A stretch of 64,000 bases of DNA from the NCBI GenBank assembly GCA_014905635.1, contig CM026547.1, forward strand, positions 186,001 through 250,000, written 5' to 3'. This DNA comes from Scenedesmus sp. PABB004. Its lineage: Eukaryota. Positions within the stretch are counted from its first letter, which is position 1. Each line of letters opens with the position of its first letter. The position numbers were made by a program, and so were the translations under genes. Under the pieces are notes generated by a model. That model was not told the DNA's origin, made no database searches, and worked only from the letters and a program-made list of their open reading frames with translations. Below, piece by piece: positions 44,826 to 51,139 of the stretch.

Positions 44826-45215
44826 ATGCAGCGCCCGGCGGCGGCGCGGCTGCTGGCGGCGGCGCGCGGCCTGCTGGCGGCCCCGCAGCAGATGCAGATG
44901 TGGCAGGCGCAGCTGCAGCTGCAGCAGCAGCTGCCCTGCCTGGGGGCGGCGACGGCAGCGCCGCAGCAGCAGCACGCTCGGGGCATGTCGGTCGTCGTCG
45001 ACGTGTCGCGCAACAACGTCGACCGCGCGTACGCGCAGCTCAACAAGCACTTCCGCGACGCCGGCATGGCGGCGGAGCTGCGCAAGCGCGACCACCGCAG
45101 GACGAGCGCGGAGCTCAAGTTTGCGGCCGCGCGCGCGGCGCACAACAAGCGCGTGGGCGTGCTCATCAGCGACCGGCTCAAGTGGGTGGTGCGGCGGCGG
45201 AAGCTCAAGATCTGA
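44826..45215 (+). CDS. Mitochondrial ribosomal protein bS21-like, intronless
   Basis: Presequence-like N-terminus ending QQHARG, then VVVDVSRNNVDRAYAQLNKHFRDAGMAAELRKRDHRRTSAELK, matching the S21 pattern. Confidence 0.75.
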   Translation: MQRPAAARLLAAARGLLAAPQQMQMWQAQLQLQQQLPCLGAATAAPQQQHARGMSVVVDVSRNNVDRAYAQLNKHFRDAGMAAELRKRDHRRTSAELKFAAARAAHNKRVGVLISDRLKWVVRRRKLKI

Positions 45216-45451: not shown

Positions 45452-47852
45452 TCACTGCCGCACGCGCGACTTGAGCTCGGCGGCGATCACCGCGCGCACG
45501 TCGCCGCACGCGCTGTCGGGGATGCGCTCCGGCGCGCCCTGGTCCAGCACGTCTGCAAACTCCTCCGTGAGCTCCTGCGCGCGCGGCGCAGCGGCCAGCC
45601 GGGGTCGGCAGCGCCGGGCGGCACACACAGCTGCCCGGGCGAGGCGGGTCGGCCGCGCGACGGGCGTGGCAGGCGCCGCCGCCCTGCGCGGCGCGGGGCC
45701 GCCCCTGCGGGCGCACCAGGAACACGTCGTCCATGCCGCTGCCGTCGAATGGCATCTCCGACGACGCCTGCGCGCCGCGCGCACGCGGCGGCCGCCCGCG
45801 GCGGTTGACCGCCGCAGCGGTCCCAGGCGGCGGTCTCCCGCCGCCGCGCGGCGGCCCCGGGTGGCAGTCCGCCGCTGCCGCGGCGCAGTCCCCGCGCCGC
45901 ACCTGCACGCCGAGCAGCAGGCGGCAGATGACGGCAAAGACGCAGGCGGCCACGTAGGGCGCGGGGCAGGCGCCGTCGGGGCCGAGGTCGTGCGCGTCGC
46001 ACGTGCCGACGTGGCGGAAGTACGGCCCCAGCAGCAGGGCCCCCAGGTAGATCAGCAGCGAGCAGCAGTGCCGCAGCATGAATGGCGTGCGGTAGATCTG
46101 CGCGGCGCGCCGGCGGCGCGGTGAGCCGCGCGCGCGCGCGCGGCAGGGGCTCGCTGCGCGCGGCCCGCGCGGGGTCAGCGCGCGGGGTCGGTGCCACGAG
46201 TGCTGCTGGCCGCGCCGCGCCGCGCCTTGATGAGCCGCAGCTGCTCCGTCTGGGCCATGAGGTAGCGAAAGTATTGGCTCGTGCGGCTCATGCCGCCCTC
46301 GCCTGCGGCGGTGCGCCGCGCCGCGCCGCGCGCCGCGCGTCGCCGCGGGCGGCGCGCCGGCGTCCCGCGCGCCCCCCTGCGCCAGCCCCCGCCGCGTGGC
46401 GAGGGAGGGGCGCCGCCCCGCGCGCCCCGCACTGCCCCGGGGCGCACCGCCTTTCGAGTAGCCCGCCTTGAACCCCAGCAGCTCGTTCATCACGCTCATG
46501 CGACTCAGCGACCGGTACACGCCCACCAGGTGCCTGCGCGCGCGGCCGGCGTCGGCAGGCGGCGGCGTGGGCAGGCGGGGCGCGGGCGTCGACGCGGGGC
46601 GAGGCGGGCGCGGCGCGCGGCGCCGGCGTGCGCGCCTGTGGCCGGGCAGGCTGCGGTTGACGTGCTGCACGCGGCCGATGAAGCTCTCGGTCAGCGCCTC
46701 GGGGTCGGGGTGCAGCTGCGTCTCGCCCAGCAGCAGCCCCGCCGCCAGCCGGGGGCGCAGCACGCTCAGCCGCGCCTCGGACAGCGACTCGTAGCCCTCT
46801 GTGTGCGCCGGCGCAGCGCTCGGGGCGGCGCGCCGCCGTCACGGGCGCTGCGGCGGGCGCGGCGCCGCGGCGGGCGCGGCGCGGCGGCGCACCGTGCGTC
46901 GTGAGGTAGGCCTGCAGGTGGGTCAAAAACTCCATGGCGACGTTGGCAAACTGCGGGCAAGCAGCAGGGGGTCGGCGGCGCACCGGGCGCCGACGGCCGG
47001 GCGCGCCGGCCGGGCGCTGCGCGGTCGCTGGCCCCCGCGCCCCCGCGGCGCCAGCGGGCGGCGCACCTCCACCGCCCACGCGTGGCGGTCGTCGCCGAGC
47101 GAGGCTGGGTAGCTGCCGTCCTGCGCGTCGGCGGGGCCCCGGCCCCGCGGGTCGGCTCCCGCCGGGCAGCACGCGACGGCGCGGCCGCTCGCGGCGGCGG
47201 CACCGCGGCCTTTGCCGCGGGCCGCACACGCGCGCCCCAGCGCACCTGGACCCAGTCGCGGTGCATCCAGTACATGGCCACCACGGACGCCTTGAGCTCG
47301 CCCAGCATCATCAGCGCGCGCTCGCGCCTGCGCCCCGCCCGCGGCGCCGCTCGGCGCCACTGGGCTGGCTGCACGGCCGCCGCCACTGGGCCGCGCCGCG
47401 CACACCGCCGCGCCGCACCGCGTGAAGGACTGGGTCAGGTTGAGCGTGAGCGGCAGGGAAATGGAGAGGCTGACGAGCGAGAAGTCGATGTTGATCGGCG
47501 ACAGCCCGAGCCAGCCCGCCGCCCACACGCTGGCGCACGACAGGCTGCACAGGAGCAGCGTGTGCACGTTGAAGCAGTAAGCCGCCGCCCGCACCAGGCG
47601 CCGCGCCTCACGGCCCAAGCTCCCCTGCGCCATGGCGCCACCCCGTAGAGCGGCGCACTGCTGCGGCTGCGCGGCACCCGCGGCGGCGGCGTCGCCGCTG
47701 CTGCTCCGCGCCCGGTGTGTCGCGACGCGCCCGGCGCTGCGCAGCTGCGGTGACTCTCGCGCGTTCGTCCCTGTCCCGCTTGGTAGGCAGCGCAGCGCAC
47801 TTGGCCAGCGAGGGCGCGGCAGTGCGCCGGGCACACGGTCCCGCGAGAGCAT
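45452..47852 (-). CDS. Bestrophin-like membrane protein, multi-exon
   Basis: TM pair followed by SLPLTLNLTQSFTRRERAL..LGELKA; later IYRTPFMLR plus TM pair and SEMPFDGSGMDDV (bestrophin-like TP..Y and E.PF..DD signatures). Start is 47852 or 47633. Confidence 0.7.
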
Positions 47853-48196
47853 CACGGCACGGGGGCGCAAAAACCCGCCCGCGCGGCTTCGGCGTGAAGG
47901 GCGCGACCGCACAGCGGCTATCGCCTGTTCGCGCCGCCCGCCCGCGCTGCGGCGACGGTCAACGGCGGCACGCGGCGCGGCGCGGCGACCGATCGCCCGG
48001 CCGGCGCGGCGCGGGGACCGCGGCGGGCCGGCGAGCCCCTGTTTATTACTGCGGTGCCTGCACCCGCAACGCAACAACTCACCAACCGCGCCCCCGGTCA
48101 CGCGCGCACCAGGCTTCCCCCGCCGCGGCTGCGCGGCGTGCGCGCCGGCGACCGCCGCGCCGCCCCCGCCGCCCGCCTCGCGCAGCGCGGCGCCGC

Positions 48197-48349
48197 CTAG
48201 GCGGTGGGGTAGTCCTTGGCGCTCTTGTGGCGGTTGCAGCGGGGCTCGCCGTTGACGATAGAGGTGGTCATGACCTTGCACTGCTGATCGGTCGTCTTGG
48301 TCATCGCCACGCACTGCTCGGCGGGGCGGTCGCTCTTCTTGGGCGCCAT
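48197..48349 (-). CDS. 50-aa C-x10-C-x13-C-x2-H zinc-finger-like microprotein (left copy)
   Basis: CACCGCCATGG start right after an acceptor; MAPKKSDRPAEQCVAMTKTTDQQCKVMTTSIVNGEPRCNRHKSAKDYPTA*; alignable with the right copy. Confidence 0.75.
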   Translation of the reverse strand: MAPKKSDRPAEQCVAMTKTTDQQCKVMTTSIVNGEPRCNRHKSAKDYPTA

Positions 48350-49659
48350 GGCGGTGGACTGCGGGGCGCGGCGGCGCGGGCGGCGCGCGCGGGCGGCGTG
48401 GGGCGGCGCGCGCGCAGCAGCAGCGGCGGCGCGCTGCGCGCCCCGCGCGCGCCGGGCGGGGCGCCGCGCCCGCCGCGGCCCCGCTGGCGCGGCCCCGGGC
48501 CCCATGCTGGCACCGCGGGTCCGCCGGGGTGCCTCGAGCGGCGCGTGGCCGCACCTGGGCGGGTCGAGAGCAGCAGGACGCGGGCGGGATGCCGGCCTGC
48601 GCGCGGGGCCGGCGGGGCGCGGGCGCTGGAGCATGGGCGCGAGTTCGGGGCGCACCGGGCGGCCACGCCGAGCCGCGAGGCGCGCCCACGGCCTCCCACG
48701 CGCCCCGCTGCTGCGCGTGACGGCCTCACGCGAGGCTGAAGAGGGCTTGCAGAGGAGCTGGAGGACGGCTGTGGCGGTGGAGTGGGGCCGGAGGCGGGGG
48801 CGAGGCGGCATGAGCGCGCCGCGCCGCGGCGACCGGCTGTAGCACGCCACTACGGCCGCCCGCCTCCCGCCGGTCGCAAACAGCACGGGGCGGGCCCGCG
48901 GGCCGGATCGTGGTGGGAGGGAGCGCTGGGCGCCCGCCGGCGGCGCGCGGCAGCCGGCAGCAAGGCGGTCGCGATCGGCGCGGCGCGCGAACGCAGGGCG
49001 CCGGTGCTGCTGCGCAGCCCGCCGCCACGGAGAGCGCCGCCGCCGCCGCCGCGCGCCGCCGGCGGGCGCCCAGCGCTGCCTCCCACCACGATCCGGCCCG
49101 CGGGCCCGCCCCGTGCTGTTTGCGACCGGCGGGAGGCGGGCGGCCGTAGTGGCGTGCTACAGCCGGTCGCCGCGGCGCGGCGCGCTCATGCCGCCTCGCC
49201 CCCGCCTCCGGCCCCACTCCACCGCCACAGCCGTCCTCCAGCTCCTCTGCAAGCCCTCTTCAGCCTCGCGTGAGGCCGTCACGCGCAGCAGCGGGGCGCG
49301 TGGGAGGCCGTGGGCGCGCCTCGCGGCTCGGCGTGGCCGCCCGGTGCGCCCCGAACTCGCGCCCATGCTCCAGCGCCCGCGCCCCGCCGGCCCCGCGCGC
49401 AGGCCGGCATCCCGCCCGCGTCCTGCTGCTCTCGACCCGCCCAGGTGCGGCCACGCGCCGCTCGAGGCACCCCGGCGGACCCGCGGTGCCAGCATGGGGC
49501 CCGGGGCCGCGCCAGCGGGGCCGCGGCGGCGCGGCGCCCCGCCCGGCGCGCGCGGGGCGCGCAGCGCGCCGCCGCTGCTGCTGCGCGCGCGCCGCCCCAC
49601 ACGCCCGCGCGCGCCGCCCGCGCCGCCGCGCCGCGCAGTCCACCGCCATGGCGCCCAAG
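48338..49659. repeat. Long inverted repeat: arms ~48338-48951 and ~49048-49659, ~96-bp unique spacer
   Basis: Arms are reverse complements with symmetry centre ~48999.5, also shown by mirror-image ORFs in the track (48850..49089 vs 48910..49149). Few differences, e.g. 48921/49078 and near the intron 3' end. Confidence 0.97.
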
Positions 49660-49848
49660 GCCGCGGCCAAGAAGGCGGAGCCCGAGGAGAAGGAGCCGGG
49701 GCAGTGCGTCGCGTTGACGCTCAAGGGCCACCGCTGCACCAACGTCACGACCCGCACCGTCAAGGGCGCCCACCGCTGCCACGCCCACCGCGCCTACAGC
49801 AAGTACCCCGCCTTTGACGAGGTGGAGGCGGACGAGTCCTCCGAGTAG
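49648..49848 (+). CDS. 66-aa C-x9-C-x13-C-x2-H zinc-finger-like microprotein with acidic tail (right copy)
   Basis: 5' UTR intron 49445-49638, CACCGCCATGG, MAPKAAAKKAEPEEKEPGQCVALTLKGHRCTNVTTRTVKGAHRCHAHRAYSKYPAFDEVEADESSE*; strong GC3 codon bias. Confidence 0.8.
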   Translation: MAPKAAAKKAEPEEKEPGQCVALTLKGHRCTNVTTRTVKGAHRCHAHRAYSKYPAFDEVEADESSE

Positions 49849-50386
49849 CGCGGGCCCCGCGCCGGCCCAACCTGCCGAGCCCTGGGGGCGGGAGGCGCGC
49901 CGCGCGCGCGGCGGCCGAGTTGGCGCGCGCTGCGCCGCGCGTTGGCGTTGGCGTTGCACGTTGAGGCGGCAGGTTTGGGGGGCAGGCAGGGCCGTCGGTC
50001 GCGCCCAGGTAACGCGCTGCCGCTCGGCGCCGCCGGCGGCGCCGCTCGGCCGCCCACCAGCGCGCGCCGCGTGCCGCCACCTCCGCGCCGAGCTGCCTGG
50101 CCGGCGCGCGCGCCGCCGCCGCCGCCGCCGCCGCAGCCGCCGCGCCGCCGCCGGTGCCGCAGCTGCCCAGCTCCTGGCGCTGGCCCAGCTCTTCGCCGCT
50201 CGCGCGCCGCGGCCGGGGCGCGTGCAGAACCGCACCGCCTGCTCGCCAACGGTGCTCTGCTTCCCTCTGCTCTGCTCCCTCCACACACACCTGAGCAGCT
50301 CGTGCGCCCAGCCCGCGCGGAGCGAGAGCAGCTGGCCCCGCCGGTCGGCCGCCGTTTCAAACGCGGCGCGCTGCCGCCGCCGCGCG

Positions 50387-51139
50387 ATGCAGCCCGCCAT
50401 CCGCTGCGCCGACCCGCCTGAGGCGCCGTCGGTGCACTGGCTGCCGTTCGGCATCGGCCATGAGGGCCCCGCGGCCGTGGGGACCTACTGGGCGGTCGAG
50501 CCAGGCGCGGCCGCTGCTGCTGCCCACGCCGCCGCCCCCGCGCAGCGCCGCCTCCCCCTTGCGCGCGCCTCATGCTCTGACCACGCCGCAGAGGCGTCCG
50601 GGGACGGCAGCGGCGCCGCCGTGTGCACCGCGCACTTTCGCGGCCGGCGGCTCAAGGGTGGGGCACGCCCGCCGCGTGCGCGCGCGCGCGCCGGGGCGGC
50701 CGCCGACTGCGCGCGCGCCCCGCGCGTGCTCACGCCGCCGCCGCGCGCCCGCCCACCCACACAGGCGCGCACAAGCAGCTGCCGGCGGGCTTCCGCGGCC
50801 TGGTGCTGCGCCCCGCGGGCGGCGGGGCGGCGCCGACACCGAGCAGCGCAGCTGGCAGGCGGTGCAGCAGTTCCGGGGCCTCACGCTCTGGAACCACGAC
50901 GCGCCGCCCGCGCCCAGCGACTGGCACGCGCGCTGTATCGACTGGCTCGCGCTGGCGGAGCAGGCGCGCGCTGGGCGCGCTGGGCGCGCTGGGCGTGTCG
51001 TGCCGGGCCCGGGGCCGAGCGCGGGGCCGCCTGCTGCGCCGCTCCGCAGGTGCACGCGCCGGTGACGCTGGAGGCGGTCGAGGCGGAGCTGGCGAGCATG
51101 CAGCAGCAGCAGCAGCAGCAGGGTGGCGGCGGGAGCTGA
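50387..51139 (+). CDS. RNASEH2C: Ribonuclease H2 subunit C; apparent 1-nt frameshift near 50825
   Basis: VHWLPFGIGHEGPAAVGTYW, AHFRGRRLKG, LPAGFRGLVL, FRGLTLWNHDAPP, CIDWLALAEQVH. Confidence 0.9.
   Translation: MQPAIRCADPPEAPSVHWLPFGIGHEGPAAVGTYWAVEPGAAAAAAHAAAPAQRRLPLARASCSDHAAEASGDGSGAAVCTAHFRGRRLKGGARPPRARARAGAAADCARAPRVLTPPPRARPPTQARTSSCRRASAAWCCAPRAAGRRRHRAAQLAGGAAVPGPHALEPRRAARAQRLARALYRLARAGGAGARWARWARWACRAGPGAERGAACCAAPQVHAPVTLEAVEAELASMQQQQQQQGGGGS

Follow-up and report, generated by a model that had tools for sequence, protein, structure and literature searches.

Near-identical inverted arms end four codons into two anciently diverged Cys3-His reading frames of the alga Scenedesmus sp. 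PABB004

An inverted repeat with near-identical arms

We have analysed a 64-kb window of the genome of the green alga Scenedesmus sp. PABB004 (64,000 nt; contig CM026547.1, positions 186,001 to 250,000 of the forward strand; all coordinates below are those of this window), in which two small open reading frames (ORFs), encoding the proteins P0002 and P0001, point away from each other at the outer ends of a palindrome. A search of the window for inverted repeats (20-nt seed, 80-nt minimum) returned only one long repeat of high identity, the one further pair being 80 nt long at 74%. The left arm spans 48338..48954 (617 nt) and its mirror, the right arm, 49045..49659 (615 nt); between them, at the centre of symmetry, lies a unique spacer of 90 nt (48955..49044) which is itself non-palindromic. 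Global alignment of one arm with the reverse complement of the other yields 3 mismatches (L48921/R49078, L~48396/R49601 and L48364/R49633) and 2 single-base indels (L~48471 and L~48397) over ~617 columns, corresponding to ~99.2% identity, and the repeat search resolves the same relationship into three collinear inverted blocks of 485 nt (100%; 48470-48954 / 49045-49529), 73 nt (100%) and 58 nt (98%). An earlier reading of this DNA, made from the letters alone and referred to here as the original prediction, had described near-perfect inverted arms at this place; the outer ends that we obtain are identical to the ones it gave and the inner ends lie at most 3 nt off. It had also placed an abrupt break of identity after the fourth codon of both genes, and indeed both arms terminate in ATGGCGCCCAAG, the very next codon being unlike on the two sides (GCC versus AAG).

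Read in the direction of transcription, that is, on the minus strand, the left arm would comprise in order a presumed promoter, a short exon of the 5' untranslated region (5'UTR), a presumed intron, a further 9 nt of 5'UTR and codons 1 to 4 of the left ORF. The G+C content (GC) is ~79% throughout the window and rises to 84% in the arms. No further arm copy was found in the 64-kb window beyond low-complexity GC matches at or below ~77% identity, and Rfam and tRNA scans of the 47.0-51.0 kb interval were empty. A table in PMC12571836 lists this assembly at 39.8 Mb in 77 contigs, with 78.5% GC, 1.31% repeats and 7,092 genes; these figures agree with the composition of the window and suggest a sparse annotation.

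A metagenome contig of 213 nt fits positions 49171-49383 at 98.6% (3 differences) and can be placed on either arm. In the run that contains it 6% of the sampled words are present, and the remaining placements are low-complexity GC matches, none of which spans the arms. The same alga or a close relative therefore occurs, though at low depth, in a sample taken from the environment.

Coding signature and divergence of the two small ORFs

The left ORF (P0002) occupies 48197..48349 on the minus strand and encodes 50 residues plus a stop; the right ORF (P0001) occupies 49648..49848 on the plus strand and encodes 66 residues plus a stop, with an acidic tail and a C-terminal peptide that reads ...AFDEVEADESSE. 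Both proteins begin with MAPK and both carry an array of three cysteines and one histidine (Cys3-His), being C13-X10-C24-X13-C38-X2-H41 in P0002 and C20-X9-C30-X13-C44-X2-H47 in P0001. An open frame is uninformative at 80% GC, and for this reason the coding test used here is the GC content by codon position. At the first, second and third positions (GC1/2/3) it is 0.50/0.50/0.96 for the left ORF and 0.64/0.50/0.98 for the right one, so that both ORFs combine a GC2 of 0.50 with a GC3 of 0.96-0.98, a profile which the exons of the RNASEH2C gene in the same window share. The arms give a flat profile (0.81/0.88/0.84), as do the spacer and the 3' flanks. In a sliding scan of 47640-50160 coding-like signal appears only at the two small ORFs, each with one antisense frame too, and within the arms the scan finds no coding-like segment beyond the ends that adjoin the ORFs. 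By this compositional measure the two ORFs look coding and the arms look non-coding.

The two proteins are homologous, with a BLASTP E-value of 6e-10 and ~38% identity, and the residues invariant between them (Q19 C20 V21 A22 T24 C30 T34 T35 V38 G40 R43 C44 H47 Y53 P54, in P0001 numbering) are those of the conserved pattern that the original prediction had pointed out. Past codon 4 the aligned codons are identical at 76 of 135 nt (56%), and the proportions of differing synonymous and nonsynonymous sites (pS and pN) amount to 0.41 and 0.44, respectively. The comparison of arm identity with coding divergence had been proposed beforehand as a check: the arms differ at 0.8%, while the coding sequences reach a pS of 0.41. 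Since synonymous sites have diverged to this extent, the identity of the arms must be secondary, the product of conversion or overwriting, and cannot be read as the age of the duplication, which is far older. These results support the view that P0001 and P0002 are real-looking, anciently diverged paralogs with a Cys3-His module.

The left ORF appears to be missing from the public annotation. P0002 is not among the matches to a two-sequence profile of the pair in a library of 1.84 billion representatives, which may have a length cut-off, and it is apparently not present in the public protein libraries searched.

The Cys3-His module and its family

The module common to both ORFs, C-X9/10-C-X13-C-X2-H, also occurs in four database proteins unrelated to one another, often as tandem copies. 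At E ≤ 1e-3 the profile built from P0001 and P0002 collected 6 matches from the library, the best of them being P0003 (HT031_000047, 208 aa, a hypothetical protein of Scenedesmus sp. PABB004; E 4.8e-31), to which we return below. The pattern C-x-A-x-T-x(4-6)-C-x(10-15)-C-x2-H is carried by P0004, P0006, P0007 and P0008, in tandem in 3 of the 4. The remaining match, P0005, was rejected as a carrier of the module: it is a leucine-rich-repeat protein, matched over 20 profile positions only and with no instance of the module. In a six-protein alignment the invariant positions are C20, A22, T24, C30, C44 and H47. A regular expression extracted 15 module instances from five proteins, and a hidden Markov model (HMM) of these instances finds exactly two copies in the window, namely P0001 and P0002. 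The C-terminal domain of P0008 is 47% identical to P0002 over 36 aa; P0002 is thus as near to P0008 as to P0001, which suggests, as far as sequence comparison goes, that both are old members of the family and that their split is old. P0004, an AT-biased protein of 366 aa, consists almost entirely of tandem C-x-A-x-T...C...C-x2-H-x2-Y modules, six copies of which were extracted; Pfam gives no family above threshold for it, and the module family therefore appears to be uncurated.

Curated families touch the module at one point only. P0007, a profile match at E 8.8e-4, matches DUF5763 (PF19067) at 5.6e-8, zf-primase (PF09329) at 1.1e-8 and GvpO_arch_Nterm (NF045806) at 1.8e-20, and these families share with the window proteins the arrangement C-x-A-x-T-x2-G-x2-C ... 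C-x2-H, with equal first and last spacings. P0001 and P0002 themselves give nothing above threshold in Pfam, PHROGs or NCBIfam. For DUF5763, zf-primase and WRC there is no Pfam match to either protein at E up to 10, and for GvpO_arch_Nterm in NCBIfam P0001 reaches 17.5 bits against a cut-off of 52, with no match for P0002. The plant WRC domain (PF08879) has the pattern CX9CX10CX2H. Unlike DUF5763, GvpO_arch_Nterm, zf-primase and WRC, the window proteins have a middle spacer of 13 residues and reach no curated threshold. A link to DUF5763 or related families would thus run transitively through P0007 only, and on these sequence scores we do not assign the two proteins to any of them. A literature search returned no mention of DUF5763.

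The AlphaFold2 (AF2) model has a mean predicted local distance difference test score (pLDDT) of 75, rising to 87-89 in the blocks covering residues 21-50. No fold search returned a significant match, the best Foldseek row being the internal zinc-finger domain of MCM10 at a weak E of 3.9 and the best VIA rows zf-AN1 and the Hit1 zinc finger at an equally weak Z of 2.0-2.2; atlas look-alikes at 0.84-0.87 are leads only. A sequence search of the PDB gave a Cys-rich eggshell protein at E 0.15 and nothing else, and a protein word-index search with P0001 among near lengths yielded no candidate. Altogether, P0001 and P0002 are best described as putative zinc-finger-like Cys3-His microproteins for which metal binding is a prediction only, and they would add two members to a widespread and uncharacterised family of the C-x-A-x-T...C...C-x2-H module.

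Presumed leaders and 3' signals

Upstream of each ORF the arms carry the boundaries of a probable 5'UTR intron. On the right it would extend over 49445..49638 on the plus strand (194 nt; CAG/GTGCGG ... GCGCAG/TCCACCGCCATGG, the slash marking the splice site), and on the left, as its mirror, over 48359..48554 on the minus strand (196 nt; CAG/GTGCGG ... CCCGCAG/TCCACCGCCATGG). The presumed CGCAG/ acceptors resemble those of the RNASEH2C introns, and three of the five differences between the arms fall within the presumed intron. As regards the mirrored intron of the original prediction, then, the boundaries are present in both arms, and splicing itself is predicted from them. A transcript that included the ATG at 49365 would carry an upstream ORF in another frame, and for this reason transcription probably starts between ~49366 and 49444. 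The start context of the small ORFs, CCACCGCCATGG, has a G at -3 and a G at +4, which by the general Kozak rule makes a strong context.

On the 3' side, an AATAAA at 48042..48047 on the minus strand, 149 nt past the stop of the left ORF, is a possible 3'-end signal of a stand-alone left transcript; the window contains just 3 such hexamers, both strands counted. TGTAA, the usual chlorophyte poly(A) signal, occurs 5 times in the window on both strands against 3.15 expected and is not enriched, so that it does not help to delimit transcripts; the 3'-end signal of this genome evidently differs from TGTAA/AATAAA.

Origin of the arm identity

Inverted arms of high identity, a unique spacer and adjoining homologous DNA which is far more diverged are the features of a palindrome homogenised from within, and all three are found at this locus. 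A young duplication followed by fast protein evolution is excluded, since arms of ~99% identity adjoin coding DNA saturated at synonymous sites. The reading that we favour, with a probability of roughly 60%, is that two ancient head-to-head paralogs have had their promoter, 5'UTR and first four codons homogenised by homology-guided gene conversion from arm to arm. According to this proposal the head-to-head duplication would be old and the coding sequences of the two Cys3-His genes would have stayed distinct, while intrachromosomal conversion between the inverted copies would keep their upstream halves near-identical. The converted unit on each side would comprise the promoter, the short 5'UTR exon, the ~195-nt 5'UTR intron, the Kozak region and codons 1-4, and tracts reaching deeper into coding DNA would be blocked by heterology or purged by selection, leaving a sharp edge after codon 4. 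The outcome would be a divergent pair of transcription units whose promoters and 5' leaders are the same and whose regulation presumably is too.

The position of the edges speaks for this mechanism: because the edge falls, in frame, at one and the same codon in the two genes, conversion guided by homology is to be favoured over a duplication with random breakpoints. Moreover, conversion can only proceed from a lesion that homology flanks on either side; the arms would thus already have been similar beforehand, and recurrent conversion is in turn a more parsimonious explanation than a single overwrite. The original prediction of an old head-to-head duplication with homogenised arms thus stands as regards the diverged paralogs and the secondary nature of the arm identity, and its conversion step is the part that the in-frame arm ends make the more probable. 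Crossing-over between the arms would merely flip the 90-nt spacer, and accordingly the locus does not constitute an expression switch.

A number of observations weigh against this reading. The searches for related loci came back empty: a 34-nt exact arm pattern gave none, a protein profile gave 390 pattern matches in metagenome contigs of which 0 were confirmed, and 61 pattern matches in viral contigs led equally to 0 confirmed. A single recent conversion and recurrent conversion leave the same picture at one locus. Outside the scaffold residues the Nei-Gojobori (NG) ratio of nonsynonymous to synonymous divergence (dN/dS) between P0001 and P0002 is ~1.1, in a saturated comparison, and purifying selection is not evident. 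The public gene model corresponding to P0003 fuses the right ORF with RNASEH2C, and its donor (GAG/GTGGAG, 49821/49822) is plausible. Finally, the palindrome is known from a single assembly, and two of the five differences between the arms, both of them one-base indels, lie in G/C runs and could be consensus errors.

The last point raises the possibility that one of the arms was made by the assembly or its polishing, through a fold-back, a chimeric read structure or a collapsed repeat. The structure is seen in one assembly, the metagenome matches do not span it, and arms of 84% GC are hard on sequencing chemistry. Yet there are 5 differences between the arms, the 90-nt spacer that they enclose is not palindromic, and the outer junctions of the arms are in frame at homologous codons of two different, coding-like and homologous ORFs, a coincidence not expected of an artefact. 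In addition, the structure measures 1.3 kb, far below the length of long reads, it lies well inside a contig whose reported length is 4.85 Mb, and the assembly is listed in PMC12571836 with 77 contigs and 1.31% repeats. We regard an artefact as very improbable.

Identical arms beside diverged coding sequences would likewise result from a young inverted duplication of a whole gene in which a distant third paralog subsequently supplied a replacement for one coding sequence, or, in a variant of this scheme, from a fold-back mobile element that brought the arms along. The search for a third copy covered the window, where the 15-instance domain profile finds just two copies. P0003 is the only other protein of the same organism among the 6 library matches, and sequences that are 56% identical are, on general grounds, mechanistically unlikely partners for ectopic conversion, so that we give this scheme as little credit as the artefact. 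As to its variant, a mobile or fold-back element was rejected: there is no other arm copy in the window, and no target-site duplication is seen in the bases that adjoin the arms on the outside (…TCTT / GCCG…).

Beyond homogenisation by conversion, one may speculate that the arrangement is a selected, continuously self-correcting "twin promoter", in which concerted evolution restricted to the regulatory and leader DNA would hold two microproteins that act jointly, as a heterodimer or as an antagonistic pair, under identical control of transcription and translation, each of them perhaps leading a bicistronic message (into RNASEH2C on one side). We hold this extended version to be doubtful. If true, it would provide a eukaryotic case in which conversion maintains the stoichiometry of expression and leaves protein divergence free.

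Comparison with known systems

Arm-to-arm gene conversion is familiar from the palindromes of the human Y chromosome. In Caenorhabditis elegans the hsp16-1/hsp16-48 locus is described as a 3.8-kb inverted repeat subject to conversion between its arms (PMC3966223). The present locus resembles these systems in having inverted arms of at least 99% identity around a unique spacer and adjoining sequence which is far more diverged, the identity being ascribed there to intrachromosomal conversion. It departs from them in that their genes lie inside the arms and have their coding sequences kept identical, whereas here the arms end 12 nt into the coding sequence and the proteins are ~38% identical. It also differs in scale, 0.6 kb being tiny compared with the Y palindromes or hsp16, and in that concerted evolution is a proposal here. 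A literature search for promoter-restricted conversion between head-to-head paralogs, judged by titles and the openings of abstracts, found none with this inverted pattern. As a probable case of regulatory DNA evolving in concert, the locus is a tidy example which is not unprecedented, and it does not amount to a new kind of system.

What sets the locus apart is the direction of the contrast. In the usual form of concerted evolution the coding sequence stays identical and the flanks drift, whereas here the presumed promoter, leader and intron, ~615 bp in all, show 99% identity and the proteins ~38%. Were recurrent conversion true, the locus would represent a natural experiment on the boundaries of conversion tracts, and it would allow one to test whether recombination, and not selection at the level of motifs, maintains the identical cis-regulation of two products. 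It would then also offer a compact and symmetric bidirectional promoter in an alga of biotechnological use.

Neighbouring genes and the public gene model

The right neighbour had been taken for RNASEH2C, an identification that its Pfam match (RNase_H2_suC) bears out. The gene extends over 50387..51139 on the plus strand and has its own in-frame ATG at 50387 (MQPAIRCADPPEAPSVHWLP...), 538 nt past the stop of the right ORF. This ATG lies directly ahead of PAIRCADPPEAPSVHWLP, and starting from it one obtains a stand-alone RNASEH2C of 152 aa that begins 15 residues before the Pfam domain. The left neighbour is a multi-exon gene on the minus strand whose first coding-like exon is found at 47388..47632 (ATG 47632-47630), 565 nt past the stop of the left ORF. 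The original prediction had called it bestrophin-like, a label that was not reproduced, 8 exon-like pieces and 11 minus-strand ORFs having given 0 matches to the Pfam family Bestrophin. Further upstream an ATG at 47852 on the minus strand is in frame with the ATG at 47632, 73 codons before it, and the stretch 47852-47630 (minus strand) is rich in Arg, Ser and Ala and transit-peptide-like, with a weaker third-position GC bias.

The public model has bearing on whether the right ORF is a gene of its own. Mapped to the window, P0003 consists of an exon at 49648-49821, which is the first 58 codons of the right ORF, spliced to RNase_H2_suC exons from 50393. Should this model be correct, the right ORF would be the first coding exon of RNASEH2C, the palindrome would duplicate the 5' end of that gene, and the left ORF would be a relic or a separate small gene. 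In its favour are the strength of the profile match (E 4.8e-31), splice sites which are plausible on both sides (GAG/GTGGAG and ATGCAG/) and the fact that no ATG occurs between the start of the right ORF and that of RNASEH2C. The ATG at 50387 nevertheless suffices for a complete protein, and the N-terminal Cys3-His extension is present in 0 of the 3 RNASEH2C homologues compared (P0010, P0011 and P0012); P0011 (144 aa), the sole one of them with a complete N-terminal region, begins just ahead of the domain. The right ORF, moreover, runs 8 codons beyond the supposed donor, all with G or C in the third position, before it meets its stop, and the left paralog has its own stop 2 codons past the conserved YP.

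The model is also demonstrably imprecise elsewhere. The stretch "DLPxGYTGLVLRPGG", conserved in 3 of the 3 homologues, is missing from P0003, and the window encodes "LPAGFRGLVLRPAGGG" in another frame at ~50775-50820, so that its fourth exon is probably mis-phased at the 5' end. Because RNASEH2C has its own ATG and no homologue carries the extension, the right ORF is probably a separate gene; the fusion in P0003 looks like a prediction error, and we consider a genuine first exon of RNASEH2C unlikely. Two annotation problems are thereby exposed in a genome of ~79% GC: an ORF of 50 aa with conserved cysteines that is apparently missing from the protein libraries searched, and a small ORF which was probably wrongly fused to RNASEH2C. 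As a separate matter, two of the four introns implied by P0003 start with GC instead of GT, at 50506/50507 (CCAG/GCGCGG) and 50963/50964 (GCAG/GCGCGC); a genome of 79% GC such as this one may have many GC-AG introns, or P0003 may be wrong at those sites.

With the right ORF as a separate gene, its relation to the gene downstream has still to be considered, as a larger gene in the same orientation begins downstream of each small ORF, after 538 nt on the right and 565 nt on the left. The bicistronic nuclear mRNAs described from green algae carry a small ORF 1 in a weak start context, and ATGs are scarce ahead of their ORF 2 (Gallaher et al. 2021, PMC7896298; Duenas et al. 2024 preprint, PMC11291117). 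The mirror promoters could drive two divergent messages of this type, each with a small ORF as its ORF 1, an arrangement compatible with conversion between the arms. The right side offers the best argument for it: there are 0 ATGs in 736 nt (49651-50386) where ~3.9 are expected (Poisson P ~0.02), and only 3.5% of 2000 shuffles have none; a scarcity of ATGs before ORF 2 together with a small ORF 1 is typical of the algal loci reported in these two papers. The supplement of PMC7896298 includes a pair of C. zofingiensis with an inter-ORF distance of 555 nt, and gene predictors would often fuse the ORFs of such loci, much as P0003 does.

Other features of the locus are unlike those of the green-algal bicistronic genes. 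The inter-ORF distances of 538-565 nt are 2-3 times the medians of 183-260 nt given in PMC7896298 and PMC11291117, the start context of the small ORFs looks strong where these papers report weak ones, and the left side has 3 ATGs in 714 nt. An AATAAA follows the stop of the left ORF at 149 nt, and in a genome as compact as this one 540 nt would be enough for a 3'UTR, a promoter and a 5'UTR. The likeness lies in a small ORF that precedes a larger gene in the same orientation and, on the right, in the ATG-free stretch between the two starts. Bicistronic messages are in our judgement an improbable arrangement, if slightly less so than the fusion. In view of the P0003 model and of the same-strand genes that follow the two ORFs, stand-alone microprotein genes are likely but not certain.

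The C. zofingiensis pair just mentioned (Cz01g18215/Cz01g18220; PMC7896298) consists of an unannotated ORF of 342 nt located 555 nt upstream of a gene with a bestrophin domain; it recalls the small ORF ahead of a bestrophin-like gene in the original prediction, and we note it as a lead only. Elsewhere in the window, between 44195 and 45455, genes are likewise closely spaced: 541 nt separate the divergent ATGs of a gene containing tetratricopeptide repeats (TPR; 44284, minus strand) and of an ORF resembling ribosomal protein S21 (44826, plus strand), and two convergent stops at 45215 and 45452 lie ~237 nt apart.

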